Positions 12,890-28,159 are shown, counted from the stretch's first letter. The stretch is 64,000 bases of DNA from Verrucomicrobiia bacterium (GCA_035545995.1 DASZXH010000044.1:1527-65526), one strand, 5' to 3'. Numbers and translations are program-made. The notes: generated by a model not told the origin, from the letters alone.

Positions 12890-12903
12890 GGCAAATTAAA
12901 CAG

Positions 12904-12924
12904 CCACAGATGAAACACGGATTG
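12904..12924. repeat. REP-like motif CCACAGATGAAACACGGATTG (inverted partner at 13638-13657)
   Basis: The reverse complement matches 13638-13657 (CAATCCGTGTTCATCCGTGG) except for one indel and one mismatch. Confidence 0.5.
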
Positions 12925-13001
12925 AGTGCGAAACGAAAGAAAATTCCCTTTGAACCTATTTCGTCTGACCGCCAATCATCCAAGCCGGTGACGATTTAAT
13001 T

Positions 13002-13541
13002 TTACTCTTTTAATTTTTTCACTTCGGTGAAGAAGGTGAAATAGCGCGAGGCCGTAAAACCAATCGGCAACAGCAAAATGGCGAGCACAAACCAATCGCG
13101 CCATTCCGGATGGCGGAACATTTCCGCCGCCAGAATCAAAACGGCCAGCAGCAGCAGCGTCAGTGAAATGCCGCGATGGAAGCGGCTCAATTCAGATTGC
13201 AGCCATGCGTCCATGCGGCTTTCCAAAACGCGGCCATGATGGGAATCGGTGCAGTTGCCTTTGAGGTGGCAGCCGTTGCAATGATGCGCCGGGGCGCGGT
13301 AGGTGGCGATTTTCCGCTGGAAATCCGTCTGTTCGCGCGTCAGGTGAATGCCGGTCGGACATTGCCAGACGTCCAGTCGCTTTTGGTAGGTGAAACCGGA
13401 ATGGCGAAAATGTTCCGAGCGGCGATGTGAATGACGCGCGATGAGTTCCAAAATCACCGCGACGCCGACGAGCAACAGCGCGTAGCCGCCGGCCAAAATC
13501 ACTTCGATATGGATGCCGTGAAACATTTTATTTTCAAACAC
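13002..13541 (-). CDS. hypothetical Cys/His-rich membrane protein
   Basis: 179 aa with hydrophobic helices at both ends. The central loop reads 'WQCPTGIHL...YRAPAHHCNGCHLKGNCTDSHHGR' and contains a CxxCH. Confidence 0.45.
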   Translation of the reverse strand: MFENKMFHGIHIEVILAGGYALLLVGVAVILELIARHSHRRSEHFRHSGFTYQKRLDVWQCPTGIHLTREQTDFQRKIATYRAPAHHCNGCHLKGNCTDSHHGRVLESRMDAWLQSELSRFHRGISLTLLLLAVLILAAEMFRHPEWRDWFVLAILLLPIGFTASRYFTFFTEVKKLKE

Positions 13542-13550
13542 AGATTCTTA

Positions 13551-13616
13551 ATCCGCAGATGACGCAGATTTTCGCAGATTTAATTTTAATCTGCGTTCAT
13601 CGGCGAAATCTGCGGT
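13551..13616. repeat. REP-like element: 3x CGCAGAT then 2x ATCTGCG (nested hairpin)
   Basis: Read directly: CGCAGATTTAATTTTAATCTGCG forms the core hairpin, flanked by CCGCAGAT ... ATCTGCGG. Confidence 0.6.
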
Positions 13617-13637
13617 TAAAAATCAAATCAAACAAAT

Positions 13638-13657
13638 CAATCCGTGTTCATCCGTGG
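13638..13657. repeat. REP-like motif CAATCCGTGTTCATCCGTGG
   Basis: Inverted partner of 12904-12924. Together the two bracket the 179-aa gene. Confidence 0.5.
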
Positions 13658-13665
13658 TTCATTTT

Positions 13666-15960
13666 TTATCCGCCAAAGTTTTTCGTTTCGTGAATTTCTT
13701 CAAACAGCGTGCCGTCGGGAATTTCGCGCGGGGTTTGTTTTTTCATGTGAACCAATCCGTGCCAGCAGAGCCATAAAAGCGGCAGCGTGCCGCCGACGAT
13801 GAACAGCGCGTCGCCGGGCAAACGCAGCCATTCAAACAACGAATTGGCGTGGCTGGAAATGAATTTCAACGACCGCGCGTCGTAATAACTGACGCTGACG
13901 GAGTGATAGAGTTGAATCAAACCGAGCGGAAACAGTGTGGCGAAAACCATCCACGCGAGGCCGAGGTTGAGCGACCAAAAACTGATTTTCGCGGCGCGGT
14001 CGCTCCACAATTTTTCGGGAATCATGTAGCGCAGACAAAAGAGCGCGAGGCCGACGGCCAGCATTCCATAAACGCCCATCATCGCGGCGTGGCCGTGATT
14101 GGCGGTGAGCGCGGTGCCGATTTCGTAATAGGAAACAATCGGCAGGTTGATGAGAAATCCGAAAATGCCCGCGCCGAGAAAGTTCCAAAAACCGACGGAC
14201 GCCAGAAACATCACCGACCAGAAATGCGGAAACGGCGTTTTCGCATTGGATTCCTGCTGCGCGCCGAGTTGGAGAAAGCTCCACGCTTCGACGGTCAGGA
14301 ACGTGAGCGGAATCACTTCCGCCGCCGAGAAAAACGCGCCCATCGCCATGTGCAACGCCGGTTCGCCGGAAAAATAAACGTGGTGCATCGTGCCGATGAC
14401 GCCGCCCGCCGAATACAAAACCACGTCGAGATAAATCAGCCGCAACGCGACGCGCTGATGGACGACGCTGAGCAGCACGAAAATGTAGGCGACCATGACC
14501 GTCGTGAACAATTCGAGAAAATCTTCGACCCACAAATGCACGACCCAAAACCGCCAGAAATCCGTCGTGGTGAAATTGGAATTGGTGTGCACGAGCAGCC
14601 CAACAGCGTAAAACGCGGGAATGGAAAGCGCGGCGAAGAAAAACAGCCACGGCATATTGCCCATGTGCTCGTCGCGCAGGCGATGGCGCAGACCGCGAAA
14701 AAGGATGACGACCCAAAACGTGAGGCCGACGGTCAGCAGGATTTGCCAGAAACGTCCCAAATCCAGAAACGTAAAACCTTGATTGCCGAACCACGACCAA
14801 CCGCGTTCAATCCAGTGAAACACGCCCGCGTATTCGCCCGCCATGCTGCCGAAAACGACGAGCGCGAGCGCGCCGAGCAGCAAATAAGACAGGACGTTTT
14901 GTCCGCGCGGTTCGCGTCCGGTGATCATCGGCGCGAGAAAAATTCCGGCGGCAAGATAAGATGTGGCCACCCAAAAAATCGCCAGTTGCAGATGCCACAT
15001 GCGCGCGAGGTTGAACGGCAAAATTTGCGCGAGGTCGAAGCCGAAGAAATTGGAAATTTCCGCGCGATAATGTTCCGCCGCGCCGCCGAACATCGTTTGC
15101 AGGAAAAACAGCAGCGCCATGACGAAGAAAAATCCTGCGCACGCGCGTTGCGCCGGCGTGAGCATGACTTGATCGGGCGGACGAAACGAAATGCGCTGTT
15201 CCTCGCGTCCGTGCCAGCCGAGAAAATTCCAGCGTCCAAACGCGGCGAACAACAGCCCGATGCCGCCGAGCAGCGCGGCGAGCGAAAGCATACTCCAGAC
15301 GACGGCTTCCGCCGTGGCGTGATTGTTCACGAGCGATTCCGGCGGCCAGTTGTTCGTGTAGGAATAATTTTTGTTTGGCCGCAGCGTCGAACCCGCCCAC
15401 GCGGACCAACTGAAAAACGCGGTGAGTTGCCGGATTTTTTCCGGGTCGGTGATAGCGTTTGGGCGCAAACCAAATTTTGTCGTGGGCGAACCAAAAAATT
15501 CGCCGTAGTAAGCGGTGAGTTTTTGAAACGCGTCGGCTTGCGCGTCGCTGTAAATCAAAACGCCGGTTGCGGCGTCGTAACGATTCGTTTTGAAATCGGC
15601 GACGGTTTTTTCATGCGCGACGTCCAAAGCGTTTCCGCCGTAAAAATCAATCGTCATTTCGGCGGCGCGATGCAAATAGCCCGCCGTGAAATCCGGGCCG
15701 AGCCACGCGCCGTGGCCGAAAATCGAGCCGTATTCCATCAACCCGTTTTGCAGAAAAACTTCCTGCCCGGCGGTGATATCCGCGCCGGTGAACAAAACTT
15801 TTCCGCTGGCGTCCGTGACTTTGGCGGGAATCGGCGGCTCGTCGGTGTAAGTGTAATACGCGAGCAGTCCCATGATGAAAAAACCGAACAGCATCACGAG
15901 CGCGACGGCTTGCAGCCAGCCTTTGGAAACGAGCAGGGTTTTATTCGGAGATTCGTTCAT
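13666..15960 (-). CDS. norZ: quinol-dependent nitric-oxide reductase (qNOR), single-subunit NorZ/NorB type
   Basis: 764 aa with an N-terminal TM helix and a periplasmic extension, followed by a 12-TM haem-copper-oxidase core ('HLWVEDFLELFTT', 'GTMHHVYFSG', 'NHGHAAMMGVYG'). Confidence 0.9.
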   Translation of the reverse strand: MNESPNKTLLVSKGWLQAVALVMLFGFFIMGLLAYYTYTDEPPIPAKVTDASGKVLFTGADITAGQEVFLQNGLMEYGSIFGHGAWLGPDFTAGYLHRAAEMTIDFYGGNALDVAHEKTVADFKTNRYDAATGVLIYSDAQADAFQKLTAYYGEFFGSPTTKFGLRPNAITDPEKIRQLTAFFSWSAWAGSTLRPNKNYSYTNNWPPESLVNNHATAEAVVWSMLSLAALLGGIGLLFAAFGRWNFLGWHGREEQRISFRPPDQVMLTPAQRACAGFFFVMALLFFLQTMFGGAAEHYRAEISNFFGFDLAQILPFNLARMWHLQLAIFWVATSYLAAGIFLAPMITGREPRGQNVLSYLLLGALALVVFGSMAGEYAGVFHWIERGWSWFGNQGFTFLDLGRFWQILLTVGLTFWVVILFRGLRHRLRDEHMGNMPWLFFFAALSIPAFYAVGLLVHTNSNFTTTDFWRFWVVHLWVEDFLELFTTVMVAYIFVLLSVVHQRVALRLIYLDVVLYSAGGVIGTMHHVYFSGEPALHMAMGAFFSAAEVIPLTFLTVEAWSFLQLGAQQESNAKTPFPHFWSVMFLASVGFWNFLGAGIFGFLINLPIVSYYEIGTALTANHGHAAMMGVYGMLAVGLALFCLRYMIPEKLWSDRAAKISFWSLNLGLAWMVFATLFPLGLIQLYHSVSVSYYDARSLKFISSHANSLFEWLRLPGDALFIVGGTLPLLWLCWHGLVHMKKQTPREIPDGTLFEEIHETKNFGG

Positions 15961-16053
15961 AATTTCTGTGGGTGAAATTTCGTTATTTTTTAGGTCAAGT
16001 TGCCGCGCTTGTCAAAACGGCAGTCAGTGTGTCGCAAAAGCGGCGGCAACTCC

Positions 16054-16067
16054 TTGACTTAAATCAA
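16054..16067. promoter_or_regulatory. FNR/Dnr-type box TTGACttaaATCAA upstream of norZ
   Basis: One mismatch to the TTGAT-N4-ATCAA consensus. It lies 94-107 bp upstream of the norZ ATG, in the 120-bp feoB-norZ spacer. Confidence 0.6.
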
Positions 16068-16080
16068 ATTCGGAAATGAA

Positions 16081-18117
16081 TTAAGCGAAGCCGAAATGTC
16101 GCAACGTTTGATAAACAATCAGCGCCGCAACGTAAGCCAGACCGCTCATGTAGGCGATTTGAAACAGCGGCCATTTCCACGAATTCGTCTCGCGGCGCAC
16201 GACAGCGGTCGTCGAAAGGCATTGCGCCGCCAGAATGTAAAACACGAGCAGGCTCGCGCACGTCGCCACGCTGAAAACGGGCGCGCCGTCCGAGCGCGTC
16301 GCGCGCCGCAGCGAATCGTAAAGCGAACCGCGATTGTTTTCCGCCGCGTCGCCGCCGACGCCATAAACAATGGCCAGCGTCGAAACAATCACTTCGCGCG
16401 CGGCGAACGAACTCACGATGCCGATGCCGATTTGCCAGTCGAAGCCAAGCGGACGGATGACCGGCTCAATGGTGCGGCCAATTTTTCCGGCGAAGGAATT
16501 TTGCAAGGAATTTTGCTGCGTCAGCCGGTCGGCGTTCGCGCGAATTTCATTTGCCTTTTGGGCGTCGCCGGATTTTTCAAGTTGCGCGGCCTGTTGCGTC
16601 ATGGCAATGGCCGGCGCGGGCGTCGCGGATTTGGGATAATACGACAGCGCCCAGAGAATCAGCGAAACGGCCAGAATGATCGTGCCCGCCTGTTTCACGA
16701 AAATTTTCGCGCGGTCGAACGTGTGCAGCAGCGCGACGCGCAGCGCGGGAATCCGGTATTGCGGCAGTTCAATCATGAGCGGTTTGCCGCCGCCGGGCAA
16801 AATCGTTTTGCGGAAAACCAGCGCGGCGACCAGCGCGGCGGCGACGCCCGTGGCGTAAGCGCCGGTAAAAATGGCGGCGGCCTTCAGCGGCGAATCGGGA
16901 AAAATCAGCGCCGTGACCATCGCATAGACCGGAATGCGCGCCGAGCACGTCAGCAGCGGCGTGATTAAAATGGTGACGAGCCGGTCGCGCGAATTTTCGA
17001 TGACGCGCGCGGACATGATGGCGGGAATCGCGCAGGCGTGCGCCGAAAGCATCGGCACGAACGCTTTTCCGGGAAGGCCAAACCGCCGCATGATTTTGTC
17101 CATCACAAACGCAGCACGCGCGAGGTAGCCGGTGTCTTCGAGCAGTGACAGCGCGAAAAACAAAATGCAAATCTGCGGCAGAAAAACAAGGATGCCGCCG
17201 ACGCCGCCGATGACGCCGTTGACCAGCAAACTTTGCAAATCGCCGGCGGAAATTTTTTCCGCGACGAATCCGCCGAGCGTGGCAAATAAATGGTCAATCA
17301 AATTCATCGGAATTTTCGCCGCCCAAAAAATCAGCGCGAACAGCGAAAGCATGACGGCCATGAAAACGGCGACACCGGCGACCGGATGCGTGAAGATTTT
17401 GTCCAATCTGTCCGTCCAAACGGAACGCCTGATGGCGCGCGCATCCAGAACGCGTGTGGAAATTTTCTCCGTCCAGTCGTAGCGCACCTGAAACGCGCAG
17501 CCGGAACAACCGGCGCAATTCAATTTGAAATTGCCAGCCGTTTCCGGCGTCGGAATTTTGGCGAGCCGCGCGATTTCATTTTTCAATTCGGAAACGCCCG
17601 AACCGTCGCGCGCGGAAATCGAAACGACGGCGCAGCCGAGTTCGTTTCGCAATTTGGGAACGTCAATCCAAATTCCGTCGCGCCGCGCCATGTCCATCAT
17701 GTTCAGCGCGACGATGACAGGACGGTTCAATTCGAGAATCTGACTGACGAGAAACAAATTGCGTTCGAGATTGGTCGCGTCCACGACGACGAGCGCGGCG
17801 TCCGGCGCAAGATTTTCCACGCCGCAACGCAAGGCGTCGCCGGCGATTTTTTCTTCCGGCGACAAACCATCCAAACTGTAAAGTCCGGGCAAATCCACGA
17901 CGACAATTTGCTCCCTGCCAATTTGAAAGCGTCCGGTTTTGCGCTCGACGGTCGTGCCGGGAAAATTCGCGGTTTTTGCGCGCAGGCCGGTGAGCGCGTT
18001 GAACAAGGTGGTTTTGCCCGCGTTGGGATTGCCGACGAGCGCGAGCATGAATTTTTTTTGCGCGCGCGATTTCGTTGGCGGTTCAATCACATTGTCGGAA
18101 TGGTGACAATTGCTCAT
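16081..18117 (-). CDS. feoB: ferrous iron transporter FeoB
   Basis: 'LVGNPNAGKTTLFNALTG' is the G1 motif of the G-domain. 'FPGTTVE' and 'DLPG' follow, and then a polytopic membrane domain. Confidence 0.9.
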   Translation of the reverse strand: MSNCHHSDNVIEPPTKSRAQKKFMLALVGNPNAGKTTLFNALTGLRAKTANFPGTTVERKTGRFQIGREQIVVVDLPGLYSLDGLSPEEKIAGDALRCGVENLAPDAALVVVDATNLERNLFLVSQILELNRPVIVALNMMDMARRDGIWIDVPKLRNELGCAVVSISARDGSGVSELKNEIARLAKIPTPETAGNFKLNCAGCSGCAFQVRYDWTEKISTRVLDARAIRRSVWTDRLDKIFTHPVAGVAVFMAVMLSLFALIFWAAKIPMNLIDHLFATLGGFVAEKISAGDLQSLLVNGVIGGVGGILVFLPQICILFFALSLLEDTGYLARAAFVMDKIMRRFGLPGKAFVPMLSAHACAIPAIMSARVIENSRDRLVTILITPLLTCSARIPVYAMVTALIFPDSPLKAAAIFTGAYATGVAAALVAALVFRKTILPGGGKPLMIELPQYRIPALRVALLHTFDRAKIFVKQAGTIILAVSLILWALSYYPKSATPAPAIAMTQQAAQLEKSGDAQKANEIRANADRLTQQNSLQNSFAGKIGRTIEPVIRPLGFDWQIGIGIVSSFAAREVIVSTLAIVYGVGGDAAENNRGSLYDSLRRATRSDGAPVFSVATCASLLVFYILAAQCLSTTAVVRRETNSWKWPLFQIAYMSGLAYVAALIVYQTLRHFGFA

Positions 18118-18124
18118 GGCGTTT

Positions 18125-18385
18125 TCAGGGTTGCGCGCAATGTTCCGGCGTGCAGATTTCGACGCGGACGCGCGCGGCCAGTTCCGCCGAGAGGCCGAGC
18201 CGCGAATTGAAAACCTTGAGAATCAGCGGATCGCCGCCGCGCACCAGTTCCACGCGGCGACCGGCGCAAACGCCGAGCGTCTTCAGCCGCTGGATTTCCT
18301 CGTCGTCCGTCGCGATGTCGCGGACGATGCCGCAAACGCGCGGCGGCAAATCGTTCAACCGGACGAATGAGCGTGTCGCTTTCAT
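18125..18385 (-). CDS. feoA: FeoA-domain protein
   Basis: 86 aa with 'LKTLGVCAGRRVELVRGGDPLILKV', an SH3-like FeoA pattern. It lies directly upstream of feoB. Confidence 0.8.
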   Translation of the reverse strand: MKATRSFVRLNDLPPRVCGIVRDIATDDEEIQRLKTLGVCAGRRVELVRGGDPLILKVFNSRLGLSAELAARVRVEICTPEHCAQP

Positions 18386-18491
18386 TTTTTAATCGAGTCT
18401 GGCAAATCGGCGGACCATCCGCTGTTGTTCGATTGCCAAAAGCCAGCCTCAAATTGCTCTGAAAATTTAACCGGTGGATTCGCCGATTTCT

Positions 18492-18505
18492 TTGATTTGA
18501 GTCAA
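18492..18505. promoter_or_regulatory. FNR/Dnr-type box TTGATttgaGTCAA in the feoA / cupin divergent region
   Basis: One mismatch to the consensus. The centre is 41.5 bp upstream of the cupin ATG (18540). CAGAAT at 18527-18532 is spaced as a -10 element for a class II promoter. Confidence 0.6.
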
Positions 18506-18539
18506 AACATTGGCGCGGCGCTTGTGTCAGAATTTCAAC

Positions 18540-18893
18540 ATGAGCGAAAAGCCCCTGATTGATTTGACGCAGGAAAAAATCCTTTCGCTGGCGGCGGAAA
18601 CGAAATTTGCCGCGAACGGAATTGTCAGCCGCACTTTGTTGCGCGCCGAAAATGCGCGCGCCGTGCTGTTCGGTTTTGCCGAGGGGCAGGAATTGACCGA
18701 GCACACTTCCACGCAACACGCGCTGATACAAATTTTGTCCGGCGAATGCGAATTTTTTCTCGCGGGCAAACCGCACGCGCTCAAGGCCGGCGATTTGCTT
18801 TACATGCCGCCGCATTTGCGCCACGCGGTAAAAGCCACGCAACCATTTTCCATGCTGCTGACGCTTTTCAAACCGGAGAATCAAAATGCCTGA
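18540..18893 (+). CDS. cupin-domain protein
   Basis: 'GQELTEHTSTQHALIQILSGECEF...GDLLYMPPHLRHAV' is a cupin_2 pattern. The start was moved from 18510 to 18540 because 18510 abuts the FNR-type box. Confidence 0.75.
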   Translation: MSEKPLIDLTQEKILSLAAETKFAANGIVSRTLLRAENARAVLFGFAEGQELTEHTSTQHALIQILSGECEFFLAGKPHALKAGDLLYMPPHLRHAVKATQPFSMLLTLFKPENQNA

Positions 18894-19407
18894 AAAAATT
18901 GTGACCCTTGACGTTCGCGAAGACATCCGCAACGGGCGCGAACCGTTCTCAAAAATCATGGCCGCCGTCGCGGAATTGCGCGCGGACGAAAACTTTTTGC
19001 TGCTCGCGCCGTTTGAACCAAAGCCACTGTTCGGCCTTTTAGCCCGGCAAGGTTTCAATCATTCGGCGCGTGAAATTGAAAACGGCGATTGGGAAATCAT
19101 TTTCGCCCGCAACGGAAACAATTTTGAATCAAACAACCACCAACATAAAGCGCCTGCGGTTGAAAAATCGGCGATCCGCAACCGGCCATCGAAAATGATT
19201 GAAGTGGATGTGCGCGGACTCGAACCGCCGCAGCCGATGGTGAAAATTCTCGAAGCGCTCACGGCGCTGCCCGATGGCGCGGAAGTCCGCGCCCGCACCG
19301 ACCGCCGCCCGATGCACCTTTACGCGCAACTCGAAGCGCGCGGCTTCACCGGCGAAACCGAGGAACAAAATGATGGCAGTTTTCTTACCCATATCCGCGC
19401 GCGTTGA
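18886..19407 (+). CDS. tandem DUF2249-domain protein
   Basis: Domain 1 ('LDVREDIRNGREPFSKIM...LLLAPFEPKPL') aligns by eye with the 27184 gene product. Domain 2 is 'VDVRGLEPPQPMVKILEAL...'. There is an 8-bp overlap with the cupin gene. Confidence 0.7.
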   Translation: MPEKIVTLDVREDIRNGREPFSKIMAAVAELRADENFLLLAPFEPKPLFGLLARQGFNHSAREIENGDWEIIFARNGNNFESNNHQHKAPAVEKSAIRNRPSKMIEVDVRGLEPPQPMVKILEALTALPDGAEVRARTDRRPMHLYAQLEARGFTGETEEQNDGSFLTHIRAR

Positions 19408-20767
19408 AGCGTTGAAACGAAATGCGTTAAAGCGGAACGCGTCTGGCAACGCTTCAACGCTTCAACCCTTCAATGTTTCAACGGCATCCATCGCCCTGCC
19501 GCTTTCGTTCATCGTCGCCGGCTTGTTCGCGCTTTTTGCCGGCGCAATCTGGCTGGTCGCGCAGCCGCAAATTCTCACGGCGTATCATTACAACGCCAGC
19601 GCCGTCGCCGCGATGCATTTGTTCGCGCTCGGCTGGCTTGGCAGCGTCGTCATAGGTGCGATGTATCAACTCGTGCCGGTCGCGCTGGAAACAAAACTAT
19701 TCAGCGAACAGCTCGCGAAAATTCAGTTCGCTTTTCACGTCGTTGGCTTCGTCGGAATGGTTTTAGCGTTTCGCGTTTGGAATATGAAATTTGTCGGCGC
19801 GTTCGGAACTGTTTTCACCATCGGCGTCGCCCTGTTCATTTACAACGTCGCGCGAACGCTGGTGCGGATTCCGAAATGGAATGTTATTGCCGCCGCCGTC
19901 GCGTCCGCGCTCGCGTGGATTTCGCTGGTGGTCGCCGCCGGACTTTTGATTGTGTCCGCGAAAACCGGCCACGCGAATTTCATGTTCCGTTTCAATCCCA
20001 TCGGCGCGATGCACGCGCACGCGCATTTGGGCGCGCTGGGATTTTTCATCATGCTCATCGTCGGCGTGTCTTACAAATTGATTCCGATGTTCACGTTGAG
20101 CGAAATTCAAAATCATCACCGCGCGCTGGCATCCGTGATTTTGCTCAATGCCGGACTCGCCGGTTCGTTCATTTCCATTTTATTGCAACTCGCGCTCAAA
20201 CCGCTGTTCGCGCTCATCATTGTCGCCGCGCTCGCGATTTATGGCTGGGAAATGATGGCGATTTTGCGCGCGCGAAAACGCCGCGCGCTGGATTGGGGCG
20301 TGAGATATTTTCTGACGGCCATTTCATTGCTCGCGCCGCTGTCAATTCTCGCGCTCGTTCTGTCGTGGCCGAAACTGCCGCTCAATCCGTTCACCGGCCA
20401 GCTTGAAAATGTTTATGGCTTCGTCGCGTTTGTCGGTGTCATTTCGTTCGCGGTCATCGGGATGCTTTACAAAATCATTCCGTTTCTCGTCTGGTTCGGA
20501 ACTTACAGCAAACACATTGGACGCGCGCAAGTGCCGGCGCTGGCGGAAATGGTTTCGGAAAAATGGCAAAGGCTCGGCTACTGGATTTTTCTCGCGGCGC
20601 TGGCCGTGACCATTTTCGGAATTTTATTTTCAAACGCGCTGGTCGCACGAATTGGTAGCGCATTTTTCGCCGCAAGCCTGGCGACGCTTGCGCTCAATGT
20701 CGGAAAAATTCTGTCGCATTGTTTTCAACCGAAACTTGCGCCGCTGGCCGCGCCAAAAAAATTATGA
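19370..20767 (+). CDS. 12-TM His-rich integral membrane protein of unknown function (possibly NnrS-like)
   Basis: About 12 hydrophobic helices. The motif G-x2-Y-[QK]-[LI]-[VI]-P occurs three times, and 'MHAHAHLG' is present. The start is uncertain: ATG 19370 overlaps the upstream gene, and TTG 19412 is an alternative. Confidence 0.5.
   Translation: MMAVFLPISARVEALKRNALKRNASGNASTLQPFNVSTASIALPLSFIVAGLFALFAGAIWLVAQPQILTAYHYNASAVAAMHLFALGWLGSVVIGAMYQLVPVALETKLFSEQLAKIQFAFHVVGFVGMVLAFRVWNMKFVGAFGTVFTIGVALFIYNVARTLVRIPKWNVIAAAVASALAWISLVVAAGLLIVSAKTGHANFMFRFNPIGAMHAHAHLGALGFFIMLIVGVSYKLIPMFTLSEIQNHHRALASVILLNAGLAGSFISILLQLALKPLFALIIVAALAIYGWEMMAILRARKRRALDWGVRYFLTAISLLAPLSILALVLSWPKLPLNPFTGQLENVYGFVAFVGVISFAVIGMLYKIIPFLVWFGTYSKHIGRAQVPALAEMVSEKWQRLGYWIFLAALAVTIFGILFSNALVARIGSAFFAASLATLALNVGKILSHCFQPKLAPLAAPKKL
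19402..19483. repeat. array of 8-mers CGTTGAAG (forward) then CTTCAACG (reverse), long imperfect hairpin
   Basis: Read directly: GTTGAAGCGTTG at 19403-19414 pairs with CAACGCTTCAAC at 19447-19458. The same 8-mer family occurs at 43244-43275. Confidence 0.6.
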
Positions 20768-21081
20768 CCGGAACAAAAATTGATGAAGCCGCCGTTCTCG
20801 AGACGCTGCGCCAAATCATTGACCCGGAAATCGGCGTCAACATCGTTGACCTCGGCTTGATTTACGGCGTGAGCATCGCGGACGGAATGGTGCGCGTGAA
20901 AATGACGCTGACCACGCCCGGTTGTCCGATGCACGACAGCATTTCGGGGGGCGTCAAAAACACGCTGCTCGAGCTTGAAGGCGTCACCGAGGCGGAAGTG
21001 GAAATTGTTTTCGAGCCGCCGTGGCATCTGTCGTTGATGAGCGAACAGGCGCGCATCGCCTTGCGCGTCGGAAATTTTTAA
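20764..21081 (+). CDS. DUF59 / MIP18-family metal-sulfur cluster assembly protein (SufT-like)
   Basis: 'IIDPEIGVNIVDLGLIY...MTLTTPGCPM' is the classic DUF59 motif. An ATGA overlap links it to the upstream gene. Confidence 0.85.
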   Translation: MTGTKIDEAAVLETLRQIIDPEIGVNIVDLGLIYGVSIADGMVRVKMTLTTPGCPMHDSISGGVKNTLLELEGVTEAEVEIVFEPPWHLSLMSEQARIALRVGNF

Positions 21082-21093
21082 CTGAAACAAAAC

Positions 21094-21399
21094 ATGAAAA
21101 ACACCAACCAAAATCAAATTCCCGCCGACAAAATCATGGACGTTCGTCCGATTCCGTGTTCCATCAAACACGGCCAGATCATCCAAAAATGGCTCGACCT
21201 CGCCGTCGGCGATTATTTCGTGCTGCTCAACGACCACGACCCGGTGCCATTGTATTATCAATTCGCCGCCGAATGGCCGCAGGCGTTTTCGTGGGAGCAT
21301 CTGGTCAAAGGACCGGACGAATTCCGCGTTAAAATCACCAAACTGAAATCCGGCGCGGAAAATGCCAAAACAGAAACCGCGTGTTGCGGCAGCCATTGA
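21094..21399 (+). CDS. DUF2249-domain protein
   Basis: 'DVRPIP...HGQIIQKWLDL..GDYFVLLNDHDPVPLYYQF...FSWEHL..GPDEFRVKITK' is the canonical DUF2249 pattern as recalled. Confidence 0.75.
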   Translation: MKNTNQNQIPADKIMDVRPIPCSIKHGQIIQKWLDLAVGDYFVLLNDHDPVPLYYQFAAEWPQAFSWEHLVKGPDEFRVKITKLKSGAENAKTETACCGSH

Positions 21400-21400
21400 A

Positions 21401-22210
21401 ATGAAAATGGCGGCGACCACTTCCGAGACTGTTTCCACGCGCAAAATCATCAAATTGATTTTGCCGAAAGAACACGGAAGCTGGTCGCTCGCGCTGGAGC
21501 CGGTTGCACTCGGATTGCTGACCGCGCCGACGGCGGCGGGCGGCGCGCTGGCCGTCGCCGCATTCGCGGGATTTTTCCTGCGGCGACCGCTGAAAATTTT
21601 TTTCCGCGAGGAAAATCGCGAACGATGGAAAACGGCGCGCGCCGCAATCTTTATTCTGGCAACCATTGCCATCGCCGGTTTGCTGTTGGCTATAAAATTT
21701 GGCGGCGCGAAAAATCTTTGGCCGCTGATTCCGGCGGCCGTTGCCGGAATGGCATTCGCGTTTTTCGATTTGCGCAATGAAGCGCGTGAAGGCGCGGCGG
21801 AAATTTCCGGCGCCATCACCTTTGGAATTTTGCCGGCCGCCTTTGCGACATTGGCCGGATGGAACTTTGTCGCGGCAATTTCTCTCGCGGCGGTGATGCT
21901 CGCGCGCTCCGTGCCGACGGTTTTATTCCTGCGAACGTATTTGCGAATCAAAAAAGGCAAAGGCGTAAAAATTTTTCCGGCGATTTTCGCGGCCATAATT
22001 GGATTTCTTCTCATCGTCTGGCTGGCCATTTCAAAATTTGCACCGTGGATTTCCGTCGTTTTTGTCCTGCTGATGGCCGCGCGAACAATTTATTTGCTCG
22101 CCAGCCGTCCGCGTTTCGCCGCCAAAACTCTCGGCATCACGGAAACAACTTTTGGCGCGACGATGGTTTTGACTTTGGCCGTTGCGTGGAGATTTTTTCA
22201 GCAACAATAG
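21401..22210 (+). CDS. YwiC-like membrane protein
   Basis: 'LPKEHGSWSLALEPVALGLL' starts a polytopic protein of about 270 aa. The start was set at ATG 21401, 2 nt after the upstream stop. Confidence 0.6.
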   Translation: MKMAATTSETVSTRKIIKLILPKEHGSWSLALEPVALGLLTAPTAAGGALAVAAFAGFFLRRPLKIFFREENRERWKTARAAIFILATIAIAGLLLAIKFGGAKNLWPLIPAAVAGMAFAFFDLRNEAREGAAEISGAITFGILPAAFATLAGWNFVAAISLAAVMLARSVPTVLFLRTYLRIKKGKGVKIFPAIFAAIIGFLLIVWLAISKFAPWISVVFVLLMAARTIYLLASRPRFAAKTLGITETTFGATMVLTLAVAWRFFQQQ

Positions 22211-22235
22211 GGCGCGTAAATTAGAAGAAATACTT

Positions 22236-22250
22236 AATCATTTAATGATT
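22236..22250. promoter_or_regulatory. 7-1-7 palindrome AATCATT-T-AATGATT upstream of the nirK-operon FNR-type box
   Basis: Read directly. It lies 19 bp upstream of the box and its function is unknown. Confidence 0.3.
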
Positions 22251-22268
22251 GATTAAAAGTTTAACTTA

Positions 22269-22282
22269 TTGACTTGGGTCAA
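22269..22282. promoter_or_regulatory. FNR/Dnr-type box TTGACttggGTCAA upstream of the DGC-porin-nirK operon
   Basis: A perfect palindrome with 2 mismatches to TTGAT-N4-ATCAA. GATAAT at 22305-22310 is spaced 22 bp from the box, as in class II promoters. Confidence 0.6.
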
Positions 22283-22314
22283 GTCTTCCTTCCGGTAGTC
22301 GTCCGATAATTCTA

Positions 22315-22333
22315 CTGCAATTAAAAATTGCAG
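22315..22333. promoter_or_regulatory. hairpin/palindrome CTGCAATT-AAA-AATTGCAG abutting the start codon at 22336
   Basis: Perfect 8-bp arms, read directly. It would occupy the whole predicted short 5' leader. Confidence 0.35.
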
Positions 22334-22335
22334 TT

Positions 22336-22770
22336 ATGAACAACGAAATTCTGCCATCGGACAAAACGGGAAAATCCAAGCCGTTGTCGGAAAAACCCGC
22401 CGTGGTTTATGCCTGCTCCGGCTGCTCGGACGCGGGCGAAATCGCCGACCGCGTCGCGCGGCAACTCACGCGCGAAGGCGCGGCACAAATGTCCTGCCTC
22501 GCCGGAATCGGCGGGCGCGTGAAAAGTTTGGTGATGAAAGCCGAAAACGCCGGACGCATTTTGGTTGTGGACGGCTGTCCGCTGAATTGCGCGGCGCACA
22601 CGCTTCGGCTCGCGGGGTTTCAACATTTCGAGCATCTCGAATTGCACAAAATCGGCATCCGCAAAGGCTCGTGCCCGGCGACGGATGAAAAAATTTCCGC
22701 CGGTGTCGCGGCGGCCAAAGAAATTCTTTCACGCCATCAAACCATCAATGAAATCTGTCCTGAAATATGA
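22336..22770 (+). CDS. DGC-domain putative zinc-binding protein
   Basis: 'VVYACSGCSDAGEIADR' and 'LVVDGCPLNCA' give the DGC motif plus four Cys. Confidence 0.7.
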   Translation: MNNEILPSDKTGKSKPLSEKPAVVYACSGCSDAGEIADRVARQLTREGAAQMSCLAGIGGRVKSLVMKAENAGRILVVDGCPLNCAAHTLRLAGFQHFEHLELHKIGIRKGSCPATDEKISAGVAAAKEILSRHQTINEICPEI

Positions 22771-24188
22771 AAAATAATTGCAACCGTAAAAAAGTTCTTG
22801 CCGGCGCGCTCGCGTTAAGCGCCGCTGCCGCGTTGGCGCAACAAAAACCATTCATACAGGCGGGCACGGCGCAGCCGCCGACGTTGCCGCCGCTGCAAAC
22901 GACGAACGCGCCCGCCGTTGCAATGGGCGCGAACACCAATGCGCCGTCGTTCAGCAATTTGTCCGACAAATTTTTCAACGGCGAAATTCCCGACGCCATC
23001 GCTAAAGGAAAATTTAATTTTGATGCGCGGCTCCATTACGAGCAGGCGGATGAAGAAGGCGTTTCCGGCGTCACCAAAAATTCCTACGCGCCGACGTTGC
23101 GCACGATGTTCGGTTACACGACCGCGCCGCTTTACGGATTTCAGGGGATGCTCGAAGGTTTGAACGTCACGGCGTTCGGCGGGCAAAATAATTACAACGC
23201 CGCCGGTTCAAACGGCCAAGGCAGCCGTCCAGTTGTGGCCGACCCACCGTTGACGCGACTCGACCAGGCATGGTTGAGCTGGAATTACACGAATTATTTT
23301 TCCATCAAGGGCGGGGAACAACGCATCAATCTGGACAATCAACGTTTCATCGGCGATTCCAATTGGCGTCAGAACATTCAGACGTTTGATGCCGTCAGCC
23401 TCGGCGGCGAGCCGGTTGCCGGACTGGATTTGTATTACGCCTACGTTTGGGACGTTCATCGCGTTTTCGGAAACGTGAGCGGATTGCCCGCAGCGAACAC
23501 GGATTTTGATTCGCGCTCGCATTTGATCAACGTCTCGTATTCCGGCTGGAAATACGGCACGTTCACCGGCTACGACTATTTGCTCGACTTGCGCAATTTG
23601 GCCGGCGACGCCAATTCCTGCGAAACATTCGGCGGCGCTTTCGCCGGCAACGCGCCCGTCACCGATAAAATCGCCGCCGATTATCGCGCGGAATTCGCGT
23701 ATCAAAAAAATTGGGCCGGCAGCCCGTTGCGCTACGACGCGACGTATTACAATCTCGAGGGTGGCTTGAACCTCAAACCGGTCGCGTTCGGCGGCGGCTA
23801 CGAAGTTCTCGGCAGCGGCGCAAATTCCGGCGCGGGCGGCGGACGCGCGTCATTTCGCACGCCGCTGGCCACGCTTCACGCGTTCAACGGCTGGGACGAT
23901 GTTTTTCTGACGACGCCCGCGAACGGACTCGACGATTTATACGGCTACCTTCAAGTCACTTTGCCCGCGCAAATTCCCGTGCGGTTTGTGTTTCACAAAT
24001 TCGACGCCGATTTCGGCAACGGCGATTACGGCAACGAGTTTGACATCATGGCGTCCAAAAAATTCGGCAAGCACTGGAGCGCGCTGGTCAAATACGCCTA
24101 TTTTCAGGGACAAGACGCGGCCTCGCCGTCCATCGCCAGCAATGTGGACATCCAAAAATTCTGGGCGCAGGTGGAATTTACTTTTTGA
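22767..24188 (+). CDS. outer-membrane beta-barrel porin (alginate-export-like)
   Basis: It has a signal peptide 'ALALSAAAALA', alternating amphipathic strands and a C-terminal '...WAQVEFTF'. An ATGA overlap links it to the DGC gene. Confidence 0.6.
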   Translation: MKNNCNRKKVLAGALALSAAAALAQQKPFIQAGTAQPPTLPPLQTTNAPAVAMGANTNAPSFSNLSDKFFNGEIPDAIAKGKFNFDARLHYEQADEEGVSGVTKNSYAPTLRTMFGYTTAPLYGFQGMLEGLNVTAFGGQNNYNAAGSNGQGSRPVVADPPLTRLDQAWLSWNYTNYFSIKGGEQRINLDNQRFIGDSNWRQNIQTFDAVSLGGEPVAGLDLYYAYVWDVHRVFGNVSGLPAANTDFDSRSHLINVSYSGWKYGTFTGYDYLLDLRNLAGDANSCETFGGAFAGNAPVTDKIAADYRAEFAYQKNWAGSPLRYDATYYNLEGGLNLKPVAFGGGYEVLGSGANSGAGGGRASFRTPLATLHAFNGWDDVFLTTPANGLDDLYGYLQVTLPAQIPVRFVFHKFDADFGNGDYGNEFDIMASKKFGKHWSALVKYAYFQGQDAASPSIASNVDIQKFWAQVEFTF

Positions 24189-24217
24189 ACCGGCAAAAAA
24201 TTGAACCGAAAAATTAT

Positions 24218-25720
24218 ATGAAAACGAATGTTCTGAAAATCAGCTTCGCAAGCCTTCTGTTGACGGTTGCGGCGATTTGTCCTTCAAAATCGGAAACGCA
24301 AGCCGCCGCAATTCCTGAAATTATTGGCAGCGAAAACGCCGTTTTGACCGACGCGCCAAACGTGCCGCCGCCCATCACGCGCACATACGCGACGAAAGTC
24401 ATTGTGAATCTCGAAGTCAAGGAAGTCACCCGGCGGCTCGCCGACGGCGTGGATTACACGTTTTGGACGTTTGGCGGCAGCGTGCCGGGAAAATTCATCC
24501 GCATCCGCGAAGGCGACGAAGTGGAATTTCATCTGGCCAACGCGCCCGACAGCAAAATGCCGCACAACATTGATTTGCACGCTGTCAGCGGGCCGGGTGG
24601 CGGCGCGGCGGCGTCATTTGTCGCACCGGGACACGAATCGCAATTTACTTTCACGGCGCTGAATCCGGGACTTTACGTTTATCACTGCGCGACCGCGCCG
24701 GTCGGAATGCACATCGCTAACGGAATGTATGGCTTGATTCTCGTCGAACCGGCCAACGGCCTGCCGAAAGTGGACAAGGAATTTTACATCGTGCAAGGCG
24801 AGTTTTACACCGCCGGAAAATTCGGCGATCCCGGCTTGCAACCGTTCGACTTGGACAAGGCGGTTGACGAGCGTCCGGCTTACGTCGTTTTCAACGGCGC
24901 GGTCGGTTCGCTCACGGACAGCAACGCGCTCACGGCGCGCGTCGGCGAAAAAATCCGTTTCTTCGTCGGCAACGGCGGACCGAATCTCGTCAGCTCATTT
25001 CACGTCATCGGAAATATTTTCGACACGGTTTATGACGAAGGCGGGACGACGCCGATCCACAACGTGCAAACGACGTTGATTCCGGCGGGCGGCGCGGCGA
25101 TGGTGGAATTCACGCCGAAAGTTCCCGGCACTTACACTTTTCTCGACCATTCCATTTTGCGCGCGTTCAACAAAGGTTGCATCGGGCAATTGAAAGTGAC
25201 CGGCGACGCGAACGGCGCGATTTTTTCCGGCAGGCAAAGCGACACCATTTTTACCGAACCGGAAACCAATTCTGTTCCGGCGGTCAAAGTTGAGCCGGTG
25301 GCCGCGAAGCCGGCGAAAAATTCCCAATCCGTTCCGGCAAACGCAACTCCAGCCGTTGCAGCGCAAATGGAATCGGGTAGACAAGTTTATCAACAAATTT
25401 GTTTCGTTTGCCATCAACCGAACGGCCTCGGCGTGCCGAATCAAATCCCGCCGCTGGCCGGCTCGGATTTTCTCGCGCATGAAAAAGTGGAATTGATCCG
25501 CACGTTGATTCAAGGACGTTCCGGCGAAATCGTCGTCAACGGGAAAAAATTCAGCGGCATCATGGTTCCGCAGGCCGATTTGACCGACGAGCAAATCGCC
25601 AACGTGCTGACGTTTGTGCGCAACAACTGGAACAATTCCGGCGACGCGGTGACGGCGGACGAAGTCCGCGCCGCGCGCGCCGGAGCGAAGCCCGTGGCCG
25701 CCGCAAATTCGTTTGAATGA
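24218..25720 (+). CDS. nirK: copper-containing nitrite reductase NirK with C-terminal cytochrome c domain
   Basis: 'HNIDLHAVSGPGGG' carries T2Cu/T1Cu His ligands. 'YVYHCATAPVGMHIANGM' gives T1Cu Cys-His-Met. The C-terminal 'CFVCHQPNG' is a CxxCH after a Pro/Ala linker. Confidence 0.9.
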   Translation: MKTNVLKISFASLLLTVAAICPSKSETQAAAIPEIIGSENAVLTDAPNVPPPITRTYATKVIVNLEVKEVTRRLADGVDYTFWTFGGSVPGKFIRIREGDEVEFHLANAPDSKMPHNIDLHAVSGPGGGAAASFVAPGHESQFTFTALNPGLYVYHCATAPVGMHIANGMYGLILVEPANGLPKVDKEFYIVQGEFYTAGKFGDPGLQPFDLDKAVDERPAYVVFNGAVGSLTDSNALTARVGEKIRFFVGNGGPNLVSSFHVIGNIFDTVYDEGGTTPIHNVQTTLIPAGGAAMVEFTPKVPGTYTFLDHSILRAFNKGCIGQLKVTGDANGAIFSGRQSDTIFTEPETNSVPAVKVEPVAAKPAKNSQSVPANATPAVAAQMESGRQVYQQICFVCHQPNGLGVPNQIPPLAGSDFLAHEKVELIRTLIQGRSGEIVVNGKKFSGIMVPQADLTDEQIANVLTFVRNNWNNSGDAVTADEVRAARAGAKPVAAANSFE

Positions 25721-25729
25721 AATCCGATT

Positions 25730-26563
25730 ATGAATTTTAACGCAAAAACGCAAAGACGCGACGGTGCCAGGATTGGGGAAATTTTCCTTTGCTGCGTCCT
25801 CGCCTCTTTGCGTTTTTGCGTTGATTCTTCCGCCGCCACCAACGCGAGCATCGCGCCCGCTGGCATGGTTCAAATTCCCGCCGGCGTTTATCGTCCGCTG
25901 CTTAAATCCAAAACCGACGCGGCGGAAATTGCCGTGAAAAGTTTTTATCTGGATGTCGAGCCGGTTTCCAACGGCGAATTTTTGGAATTCGTCCGCGCCC
26001 ATCCGCAATGGCAACGCTCAAACGTCGCGCGCCTTTTCGCCGACAAATCGTATTTGAAAAATTGGGCGGGTGATTTGGAGCCGGGGAAAAATGCGCCGTC
26101 GAACGCACCGGTCACATTCGTTTCCTGGTTCGCGGCGAAAGCCTACGCGCAATGGAAACACGAACGGCTGCCGACCATCGCCGAATGGGAACTCGCGGCA
26201 AATGCCAGCGCGACGCGCGCCGACGGCGAAAATGACCCGCAATTCAAGGCGGAAATCCTGAAGTGGTATTGCGAATCGTCCGCGACGGAATTTCTGCCGG
26301 TCGGCGTCGGCGGGAAAAATTTTTACGGCGTCCGCGATTTGCACGGCCTGGTTTGGGAATGGACCGCCGATTTCAATTCCGCAATTTTATCCGGCGATTC
26401 GCGCGATGACGGCGCCGACGCGAAATTGTTTTGCGGCGCGGGCGCGCAAAGCGCGCGCGCCGTGGACGATTATCCGGCGTTCATGCGATTTGCTTTTCGC
26501 AGTAGTCTCAAGGCGGATTATTGCATCCACAATTTGGGCTTTCGCTGCGCCAAAGATTTATGA
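25730..26563 (+). CDS. nirV: formylglycine-generating-enzyme (SUMF1) family protein, NirV-like
   Basis: The motifs are 'FYLDVEPVSNGEFLEFV', 'RLPTIAEWELAA', 'GLVWEWTADF' and 'NLGFRCAKD'. The start is ambiguous between 25730 (through the REP hairpin) and ATG 25865. Confidence 0.75.
   Translation: MNFNAKTQRRDGARIGEIFLCCVLASLRFCVDSSAATNASIAPAGMVQIPAGVYRPLLKSKTDAAEIAVKSFYLDVEPVSNGEFLEFVRAHPQWQRSNVARLFADKSYLKNWAGDLEPGKNAPSNAPVTFVSWFAAKAYAQWKHERLPTIAEWELAANASATRADGENDPQFKAEILKWYCESSATEFLPVGVGGKNFYGVRDLHGLVWEWTADFNSAILSGDSRDDGADAKLFCGAGAQSARAVDDYPAFMRFAFRSSLKADYCIHNLGFRCAKDL
25739..25822. repeat. REP-like hairpin: 22-bp arms AACGCAAAAACGCAAAGACGCG / CGCCTCTTTGCGTTTTTGCGTT
   Basis: Read directly: arms at 25739-25760 and 25801-25822 with 1 mismatch and a 40-nt loop. 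It sits between the nirK stop and the FGE domain. Confidence 0.8.
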
Positions 26564-27174
26564 AAACAAAACTCCCAACCGCCATCGTGGCCGCGCTCGT
26601 TTTCCAACTTGGAATTTCGGGCGCGACAGAAACCAATTTCATTCATCGCCCGTGCTGCGCGATGGATTTGCCCGCGAAAAAATTCACCGACAAATCGCTT
26701 TATCAAGTCGAATCGGTTTGGACGACGGACGCGCAAAAACAAATCAAGCTGGGCGCGCTCGCGGGAAAACCGCAGGTCGTTTTGATGTTTTACTCGCGCT
26801 GCACGACGGCCTGCCCGATTTTGGAAAATGAATTGCGACAAATTGAATCCGCGCTGACGTCGGAAACACGCGCGAAAACCGGTTTTACCTTGATTTCATT
26901 CGACAGCGAGCGCGACACACCGACGGCGCTCGCCGAATATCGCAAAGTTTGGAATTTGCCGGAAAATTGGACGCTGCTTTCCGGCCAGCCGGACGACGTT
27001 TTGGAATTGGCCGCGTTGCTCGGAATTCAATTCAAGAAATCCGGCGATGGCGAAATCGCGCACTCAAACGTCGTCACGCTTTTGAACGCGCAAGGCGAAA
27101 TTGTTTTTCAGCAAACCGGATTGAACGCTGGCGCAGATGAAATGGTTCGCCGGATTGAACAAATTGTGAAATGA
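26560..27174 (+). CDS. SCO1/SenC-family copper chaperone
   Basis: It has a signal peptide, 'VLMFYSRCTTACP' (CxxxC) and the downstream 'IAHSNVV'. An ATGA overlap links it to nirV. Confidence 0.85.
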   Translation: MKTKLPTAIVAALVFQLGISGATETNFIHRPCCAMDLPAKKFTDKSLYQVESVWTTDAQKQIKLGALAGKPQVVLMFYSRCTTACPILENELRQIESALTSETRAKTGFTLISFDSERDTPTALAEYRKVWNLPENWTLLSGQPDDVLELAALLGIQFKKSGDGEIAHSNVVTLLNAQGEIVFQQTGLNAGADEMVRRIEQIVK

Positions 27175-27183
27175 TCAATCGTT

Positions 27184-27438
27184 ATGCCGCCGCTGAGCCA
27201 GTTCAAACGCTTTGACGTTCGCGATTTGATTCGTCGCGGCATTGAGCCGTTTCCCGAAATCCGCCGGCGCGTGGACGCGCTCAAGCCGGACGAAGGATTG
27301 ATTGTCGTCGCGCCGTTTTTGCCGTCGCCGCTCGTGGAAATTTTGAGCAGCGAGGGATTTTCATCGAAAGTGGAACGCGGCGGCGGCGCGGACTGGCTGG
27401 TTTATTTTTGGCGCGAAACTGATTTGATCTCATCATGA
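27184..27438 (+). CDS. DUF2249-domain protein
   Basis: 'FDVRDLIRRGIEPFPEIRRRVDALKPDEGLIVVAPFLPSPL' parallels domain 1 of the 18886 gene. An ATGA overlap links it to the regulator gene. Confidence 0.7.
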   Translation: MPPLSQFKRFDVRDLIRRGIEPFPEIRRRVDALKPDEGLIVVAPFLPSPLVEILSSEGFSSKVERGGGADWLVYFWRETDLISS

Positions 27439-28151
27439 GCGCTGTCACGGATTACAAAACGATTGCGCTGATCAACACGTTGCGCAGTTGCCAGCTTTTC
27501 ACGGGCCTGCCGCAATCGGATTTGGAAAAAATCGCGGACGTGACGGTTTTGAAATCGCTGGAAAAGGACGATTATCTCTTTCACGAAGGCGATCCGGCGC
27601 ACGGCTTTTATGTCGTTCAACGCGGCGCGGTGAACGTGCATCGCGTCAGTGCCACGGGCAAGGAGCAGGTCATTCACGTTTTTCGCGCGGGCGACTCGTT
27701 TGCGGAGGTCGCGCTGGCTTCCGAACGCGGTTATCCCGCCGATGCGCGCGCCATCGAACCGACGCAGGTTTTGCTCGTGCAAAAGGGCGGCATTTTGGAA
27801 TTGCTCAAGTGCCAGCCGGAACTGGCGCTGCGGATGCTCGGCTCGATGAGCAGCCATTTGCGCGTGCTGGTCGGGCAGCTTGAAGATTTGACGTTGAAGG
27901 ACGTCGAAACACGGCTGGCGAACTGGCTGGTGAAGCGCTGCGCCAATCCGCAAGGCGAAACGCCGGCGAAAATCGAGTTGACCCTGACCAAGCGGATGCT
28001 CGCGGCGGAATTGGGCACGGTAAGCGAAACGTTTTCGCGGACGCTGGCGAAATTCCGCGCGCAAAAACTGATCGCCGTTAAAGGCAAAACCATCACCGTC
28101 CTGTCGCCCGCAAAATTGAGCGCGCTGTTGCGGCGCAATTTGGGGGAATGA
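27435..28151 (+). CDS. Crp/Fnr-family transcriptional regulator, Dnr/NnrR-like (no Fe-S Cys cluster)
   Basis: It has a cNMP-binding-like fold ('LFHEGDPAHGFYVVQRGAV') and a C-terminal HTH 'LAAELGTVSETFSRTLAKF' with the E--SR recognition motif. It lacks the N-terminal Cys cluster of FNR. Confidence 0.85.
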   Translation: MSAVTDYKTIALINTLRSCQLFTGLPQSDLEKIADVTVLKSLEKDDYLFHEGDPAHGFYVVQRGAVNVHRVSATGKEQVIHVFRAGDSFAEVALASERGYPADARAIEPTQVLLVQKGGILELLKCQPELALRMLGSMSSHLRVLVGQLEDLTLKDVETRLANWLVKRCANPQGETPAKIELTLTKRMLAAELGTVSETFSRTLAKFRAQKLIAVKGKTITVLSPAKLSALLRRNLGE

Positions 28152-28159
28152 CAGATGGA

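Follow-up and report, generated by a model that had tools for sequence, protein, structure and literature searches.

The stretch of DNA analysed here, which we call the window, comprises 64,000 nucleotides of Verrucomicrobiia bacterium (DASZXH010000044.1:1527-65526) and is contig C44 of a 91-contig, 2.9-Mb Limisphaerales metagenome-assembled genome (MAG; phylum Verrucomicrobiota) with a completeness of 93%. A Pfam search delimited within it a 14.5-kb nitrite and nitric oxide (NO) island, which consists of norZ, feoAB, a cupin operon, and a nirK operon that starts with a DGC gene and ends with the gene of a Crp/Fnr-family regulator (Table 1). In both plus-strand operons, neighbouring genes overlap or are separated by at most 10 bp. 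Three boxes of the FNR type lie in the island, one before norZ, one between feoA and the cupin gene, and one before the nirK operon. We consider it probable (roughly 0.78) that these boxes are operators of the Dnr-type regulator encoded at 27435-28151, and that they drive class II promoters of the island, among which the cupin promoter is predicted to yield a leaderless mRNA. Conservation was followed in 60 related genomes, one per species, of which 36 belong to the same genus and 24 to other families of the order.

Table 1 Features of the nitrite/NO island, with positions counted from the first letter of the window
Feature	Position	Strand	Remarks
norZ/qNOR (quinol-type nitric oxide reductase)	13666..15960	-	Pfam NorB_cytochrome_c-like, E = 1e-51; COX1, 4e-50
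Promoter-like element TTGACA (16010-16015)-N17-TAAAAA (15987-15992)	15987..16015	-	between box 1 and norZ ATG
-10-like hexamer CACACT	16026-16031	-	22 nt past box 1, norZ side; predicted +1 near 16019
Box 1, TTGACTTAAATCAA	16054-16067		centre 100.5 bp 5' of norZ ATG; 1 mismatch to TTGAT-N4-ATCAA
feoB	16081-18117	-	Pfam FeoB_N, Gate, FeoB_C
feoA	18125-18385	-	Pfam FeoA
Mirrored -10-like hexamer TAAATT	18464-18469	-	exactly 22 nt from box 2, feoA side
Box 2, TTGATTTGAGTCAA	18492-18505		centre 41.5 bp from cupin ATG; 1 mismatch to TTGAT-N4-ATCAA
-10 hexamer CAGAAT of cupin promoter	18528-18533	+	22 nt past box 2; -12 to -7 from ATG 18540
Cupin operon	18540..22210	+	cupin, double DUF2249 protein, COX1-like protein with 12 transmembrane segments (12-TM), DUF59/FeS_assembly_P, DUF2249, YwiC-like (Pfam)
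Box 3, TTGACTTGGGTCAA	22269-22282		centre 60.5 bp from DGC ATG; 2 mismatches to TTGAT-N4-ATCAA
-10 hexamer GATAAT of nirK-operon promoter	22305-22310	+	22 nt past box 3; predicted +1 G22317
Perfect 8-3-8 inverted repeat CTGCAATT-AAA-AATTGCAG	22315-22333	+	straddles predicted +1
nirK operon	22336..28151	+	DGC protein, porin-like barrel, NirK with cytochrome c domain, FGE-sulfatase/NirV-like, SCO1/SenC, DUF2249, regulator (Pfam)
Crp/Fnr-family regulator, Dnr type, 238 aa	27435-28151	+	last nirK-operon gene; cNMP_binding PF00027 and HTH_Crp_2 PF13545

The three boxes had been proposed from the window alone in what we call the sequence-only reading, and their coordinates and mismatch counts were all borne out. 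All three are FNR-type inverted repeats and exact copies of TTGAY-N4-RTCAA, a motif that occurs four times in the window against 0.6 expected, a number reached in 0 of 100 shuffles. The whole 2.9-Mb genome holds 21 exact copies, and 3 of them fall within a 6.3-kb stretch inside the island (Poisson P ~1.5e-5 per such interval). On the gene side, nAnnnT stands exactly 22 nt off the box at 3/3 island boxes, as against 3 of 36 site-orientations outside the island.

In class II FNR- and CRP-dependent promoters of E. coli, the activator site is centred at -41.5, and the resulting mRNAs carry leaders with Shine-Dalgarno sites. This spacing had also been claimed for the cupin and nirK-operon promoters, and the claim is supported, as CAGAAT and GATAAT each begin 22 nt past their box and the relatives share the geometry. 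When 55 box-bearing promoters of cupin, DGC and norZ orthologs were pooled and aligned on the box, information downstream of it was confined to an A at +30.5 (89%) and a T at +34.5 (87%), accompanied by an A at +32.5 in 65%. The conserved A and T correspond to A-11 and T-7 of a -10 hexamer, which places the transcription start at +41.5; in the DGC and norZ sets, this class II geometry was obtained without using any start codon. Judged against the predicted +1, the promoters thus combine a site at about -41.5 with a -10 in register, and no TTGACA-like -35 was seen after the boxes at the island promoters.

The regulator that would bind these boxes appears closer to DNR than to FNR. Its best match among solved structures is Pseudomonas aeruginosa DNR (3dkw, E = 2e-28), ahead of FNR (~1e-17), and the E--SR helix SETFSRTL that had been pointed out beforehand is present, with ETFSR aligning residue for residue and identically with the DNR recognition helix. 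The four Cys ligands of an FNR-type [4Fe-4S] centre, three N-terminal and one central, were not found in the protein, whose three cysteines (19, 135 and 167) are scattered and form no N-terminal cluster of the CxxC type. No other full-length Crp/Fnr protein was found in the MAG, where two other hits cover just the nucleotide-binding domain. Around 51 regulator orthologs, 528 kb of DNA contain 70 exact boxes, or 0.132/kb, an 18-fold enrichment over the 0.0072/kb of the present genome; the relatives to which the regulator led carry the labels Verrucomicrobiia, 'subdivision 3' or Limisphaerales. The regulator is also linked to the cupin gene, since it occurs in 27 of the 28 genomes with a cupin ortholog and in 6 of the 33 without one (Fisher P = 3e-10). 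In this lineage the preferred form of the box is TTGAC-N4-GTCAA, with 77% C/G at the fifth and tenth positions. Because the nirK operon ends with the regulator gene, positive autoregulation is probable.

Two further observations concern the surroundings of the regulator gene. In the window, an 84-aa DUF2249 gene (27184-27438) overlaps its start (ATGA). In four relatives (G040:C30, G010:C174, G006:C39 and G011:C3), the regulator stands directly 5' of the cupin gene with a gap of ~60-70 bp, which leaves room for a box and a -10 but for little more; in G011, only a C-terminal regulator fragment (a 119-aa open frame) occupies that position.

At the cupin operon, the position of CAGAAT puts the predicted +1 at 18540, which is the A of the cupin ATG, and the sequence-only reading had concluded from this that the mRNA is leaderless. 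The relatives support this conclusion. Cupin orthologous loci number 28 including that of the window, with 49-84% identity to the window protein, and nearly all of the proteins align from residue 1. At 27 of these 28 loci, the start codon, ATG or GTG, has a box centred 40.5-42.5 bp away from it (exact in 25 cases, with a single mismatch in 2), and the distance is 41.5 bp in 20 of them; the loci span many genera of the order, and the spacer between box and start has otherwise diverged. That the 41.5-bp distance has been held in 27 genomes despite diverged spacers argues that +1 coincides with the start codon. In the window and likewise in the orthologs, the -10 ends 7 nt before the ATG or GTG, without room for a ribosome-binding site. 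Together with the A-11 and T-7 of the pooled set, the conserved distance supports a leaderless cupin mRNA with its predicted +1 on the A of ATG 18540.

Upstream of the nirK operon, a start at 22317 is predicted to leave a 19-nt leader before the DGC ATG at 22336. A box was found at 16 of 17 close DGC orthologs, and it is centred at 59.5-67.5 bp from the ATG in 12 (leaders of ~18-26 nt), at 42.5-46.5 bp in 3 and at 108.5 bp in 1; the three with the box at 42.5-46.5 bp are predicted to be leaderless or nearly so. In seven relatives (L004, L006-L010 and L014), the DGC box is preceded, 55-56 bp upstream, by a second box that faces a divergent YgbA_NO gene for a 'nitrous oxide-stimulated promoter' protein (PF11756, E = 7e-42). 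The start codon of this gene is 41.5 bp from its own box, and hexamers such as CATAAT, TAGAAT and GAAGAT stand at 22 nt, which marks the YgbA_NO promoter as a further predicted leaderless class II unit in the relatives. The YgbA_NO gene was not found in the genome of the window.

The leader of the nirK operon had been described as consisting entirely of a perfect hairpin. A leader of ~19 nt is indeed predicted and the perfect palindrome at 22315-22333 is there, but the predicted +1 drops 2 of its 8 pairs, so that only 6 bp would be transcribed (-4.2 kcal/mol), and the z value of the stem is ~0 in its 44-nt context. The palindrome is kept in the nearest relative only, and the leaders of the other relatives, 18-26 nt long, are A-rich and unstructured with no such hairpin. 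We accordingly rejected a conserved RNA hairpin in the nirK leader. In the nearest relative, two substitutions in the 3' arm break the symmetry of the DNA and preserve G.U pairs in the sense RNA, which hints at an RNA-level feature from a single comparison. Separately, a perfect 7-1-7 AT-rich palindrome, AATCATT-T-AATGATT, occupies 22236-22250 and ends 18 nt upstream of box 3; its composition is loosely Fur-box-like, and it is partly kept in the nearest relative.

At norZ, an exact box precedes 10 of 15 close orthologs, 100-188 bp from the ATG, and the box-bearing ones show TACAAT, TAACGT, TAAAGT and similar hexamers at 21-22 nt past it. The region between box 1 and norZ also contains the element TTGACA-N17-TAAAAA, which is probably a second norZ promoter. 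In the alignment of norZ upstream regions, its TTGAC core is invariant and the hexamer reads TTGACA in 12/14; a TA-rich hexamer follows at 17-18 nt in 11/13, and the element is found in box-less orthologs as well. The window's TAAAAA lacks the usual T at -7. A terminator and promoter consensus scan of 12900-28400 gave noise level only.

Box 2 had also been thought to serve the divergent feoAB, and this suggestion stands in part. TAAATT lies at the right distance on the feoA side and would start transcription near 18457, giving a feoA leader of ~72 nt. The support comes from one genome, as nAnnnT was present at the mirrored position in 2 of 26 cupin loci and divergent feoAB occurs there only in the genome of the window. 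It is plausible that one dimer at box 2 drives transcription in both the cupin and the feoAB directions.

Several observations weigh against reading the boxes as operators of a Dnr-type regulator. Genome-wide, the intergenic enrichment of the motif is weak: in a genome that is 13.9% non-coding, 6 of the 21 exact copies are non-coding, which makes exact copies 2.5-fold denser in non-coding DNA (binomial P = 0.06), and one-mismatch sites show no intergenic enrichment (99/705, or 14.0%, non-coding). The closest relative has no box at norZ, and two of the -10 hexamers in the window, CAGAAT and CACACT, are weak. On the protein side, the regulator reached no NCBIfam equivalog, the best being FtrB with 98 bits against a cut-off of 211, and His187, a haem ligand of DNR, aligns with a Glu, so that NO acting through haem is at most a possible signal. 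A more radical reading is that the three boxes arose by chance in intergenic DNA rich in A and T and have no regulatory role, which would suit the shortness of the motif, the 15 coding copies among the 21 exact ones and the flat distribution of the one-mismatch sites. Such an explanation has to contend with three copies in 6.3 kb, with boxes kept in a fixed geometry at orthologous promoters of dozens of genomes, and with their enrichment beside the regulator orthologs, and we find it hardly credible. In the genome-wide scan proposed in the sequence-only reading, exact sites are somewhat denser in non-coding DNA, and this is lost at one mismatch. The scan rules out a broad regulon without rejecting the sites themselves, and of the earlier statement that the boxes define a regulon, what remains is a local regulon of three promoters with no sign of a large one across the genome.

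Four of the other exact copies were examined individually. The fourth in the window (40253-40266), TTGATTTCAATCAA, matches the FNR consensus perfectly and falls in a DUF433/HTH gene on the minus strand (39775-40467); lying within a coding gene and without promoter geometry, it was taken as a chance occurrence. Outside the island, three exact copies were scored as non-coding, and none is convincing. The copy at C53:127957 is beside small DUF433-type genes and was rejected, having no in-register -10, and the DUF433 neighbourhood that these two share is probably a coincidence. The copies at C78:18041, which sits between convergent gene ends, and at C82:9242, which is probably within a gene missed by the open reading frame (ORF) picker, were also set aside.

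Even with real boxes, individual promoters could work differently from the class II scheme. The cupin mRNA could have a leader, if transcription began further upstream or another start codon were used and the box served for repression or as a roadblock. Starting from the in-frame TTG at 18510 would lengthen the ORF by 10 codons, and the missing Shine-Dalgarno sequence is uninformative on this point because the genome appears hardly to use such motifs. However, the orthologs align from Met-1, 11 of the 28 have no in-frame upstream alternative start, and in 7 the -10 hexamer supplies, through its own TAA or TAG, an in-frame stop at -12; the register of A-11 and T-7 is conserved, and a distance fixed at 41.5 bp across 27 genomes would otherwise have no reason to be kept. 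We judge a leadered cupin mRNA to be quite improbable and keep to the leaderless one. For norZ, the box might act in a class I-like manner (at ~-80.5) on TTGACA-N17-TAAAAA, or the two promoters might be arranged in tandem with the downstream one independent of the regulator. Both proposals draw on the recurrence of that element, box-less regions included, on the centre of box 1 being 45.5 bp upstream of the TTGACA hexamer in the window, and on the poor CACACT as a class II -10. Class I action is at odds with the distance between box and TTGACA, which ranges over 45.5-127.5 bp in the relatives and not in whole helical turns, and with the -10-like hexamer that every box keeps at 21-22 nt, as fits an autonomous class II promoter. 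This variable distance combined with the constant hexamer favours tandem promoters over class I. We regard such a departure at norZ as possible but doubtful, and retain the class II promoter at box 1 in our model. For the nirK operon, the palindrome over the predicted +1 could be a DNA operator for another regulator, perhaps a repressor of the NsrR type, and not an RNA hairpin. It is a perfect inverted repeat in the right place, and its half-site TGCAATT loosely resembles the NsrR half-site gATGyAT (PMC1274295). Yet the nearest relative loses the DNA symmetry while keeping G.U pairs, and neither the remaining two promoters nor the other relatives have a similar palindrome; as RNA, too, the palindrome is weak and perhaps functionless altogether. 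We found no support for an NsrR-like operator and consider it very improbable.

The leaderless prediction for the cupin operon can be set against the genome as a whole. Genes were called with a codon-usage ORF picker that takes longest-ORF starts, and the leaderless fraction is hence approximate. A TANNNT with its end exactly 7 nt ahead of the predicted start codon is present in 155 of 1878 genes (8.3%), compared with a background of ~1% at other offsets, and the value is 10% among genes with an upstream gap of at least 40 bp. Shine-Dalgarno-like 4-mers are found ahead of only 6.4% of start codons, and in a control interval the figure is 4.5%. Judging from these counts, the organism probably makes little use of Shine-Dalgarno pairing, and many of its mRNAs are probably leaderless, which makes a leaderless cupin operon plausible, though not exceptional in its own genome. 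Some Verrucomicrobia have been listed as Shine-Dalgarno-scarce (PMC10783764). In the literature searched, neither the prevalence of leaderless mRNAs in Verrucomicrobiota nor leaderless class II FNR promoters were found described.

The cupin operon includes a 12-TM protein (19400-20767) whose similarity to haem-copper oxidase subunit I is weak and local (COX1 5.8e-10 over ~90 residues; ccoN 1.6e-6), which may be a divergent protein of the haem-copper oxidase type in an NO regulon. DUF2249 occurs four times in the island, twice within one gene and once in each of two others.

In the mechanism that we propose, a dimer of the regulator bound at ~-41.5 would bring RNA polymerase to promoters with an nAnnnT -10 and no recognisable -35. 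norZ, the cupin-DUF2249 operon and the DGC-porin-nirK-nirV-SCO1-DUF2249-regulator operon would be induced together, feoAB probably with them by divergent reading from box 2, and the regulator as last gene of the nirK operon would provide positive feedback. The cupin mRNA would begin at the A of its ATG and the nirK-operon mRNA ~19 nt before the ATG. What the sequences show directly are the sites, their constant geometry, their conservation at orthologous promoters, and the way in which regulator and boxes occur together and close to each other. We infer binding, activation (as opposed to repression) and the RNA 5' ends from the DNA sequence and its conservation; by analogy with DNR, NO and/or low oxygen would probably be the signal. 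The model offers a testable, sequence-level account of how one uncultured group of Verrucomicrobiota, widespread in soil and freshwater, might switch on nitrite and NO reduction, steps that govern NO and N2O release. It also would place uncharacterised genes, namely those of the cupin, the DUF2249 proteins, the 12-TM haem-copper-oxidase-like protein, the YwiC-like protein and DGC, in a regulon of the NO type. The cupin promoter would be a natural example of a class II activator site locked to a leaderless start codon, and this locking could help to predict promoters and the starts of genes in MAGs of this kind, although the regulatory principle itself is well known. We further speculate that the Dnr-type regulon of Limisphaerales, and perhaps of a wider range of bacteria, is systematically built on promoters in which the activator site fixes both transcription and translation starts, giving its members a shared post-transcriptional behaviour. 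This extension takes its cue from the 41.5-bp spacing at cupin, at YgbA_NO and sometimes at DGC and from the scarce Shine-Dalgarno use, and we think it unlikely to hold as a general rule. If true, leaderless mRNAs and short A-rich leaders would form a second layer of co-regulation, through selective translation or stability under NO or low oxygen.

Compared with the class II promoters of E. coli, those described here have the same 14-bp inverted repeat 41.5 bp from the predicted +1 and a -10 at 22 nt past the box with no match to a -35, whereas the predicted +1 is the start codon itself (cupin, YgbA_NO) or is followed by a ~20-nt A-rich leader without a Shine-Dalgarno sequence. Leaderless expression with a -10 adjoining the ORF has been described in Actinobacteria and Deinococcus-Thermus (PMC3160421, PMC12340547, PMC3898074). 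The likeness to those genes lies in the TANNNT at 7 nt before the start, seen in ~8% of genes here, and in the ATG/GTG starts, and the difference is that the arrangement occurs here in Verrucomicrobiota and in combination with the site of a putative class II activator. Among FNR-family systems, the regulators DNR and HcpR recognise CTTGAT-N4-ATCAAG and wyTTGACnnnnGTCAArw, respectively (Rodionov et al. 2005, PMC1274295). With the DNR regulon of Pseudomonas aeruginosa, P. stutzeri and denitrifying beta-proteobacteria (PMC1274295), the island shares a putative FNR-family activator that has the E--SR helix and no FNR Cys cluster, an FNR-like box before nirK, nor and accessory NO-response genes, and a regulator gene within the denitrification cluster. 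It differs in the phylum, in the modest sequence identity of the regulator to DNR, in the half-site, which is TTGAC/GTCAA (77%) and not CTTGAT/ATCAAG, and in its predicted targets, which include a cupin-DUF2249 operon, YgbA_NO in relatives, and at least one promoter predicted to be leaderless. HcpR of delta-proteobacteria and cyanobacteria (PMC1274295) is closer in the form of the box, which is the one preferred by this lineage, and in having a local regulon beside NO-related genes, such as norB as the Synechocystis HcpR target (PMC1274295). HcpR is defined by the control of hcp and frdX, however, and no hcp gene was seen at the boxes studied here. A local denitrification or NO regulon of the DNR/HcpR type with class II promoters is thus of a well-known kind. 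What is particular here is the Limisphaerales lineage, the set of targets, and the strict 41.5-bp coupling of box and start codon, through which the activator site would also define the start of translation.

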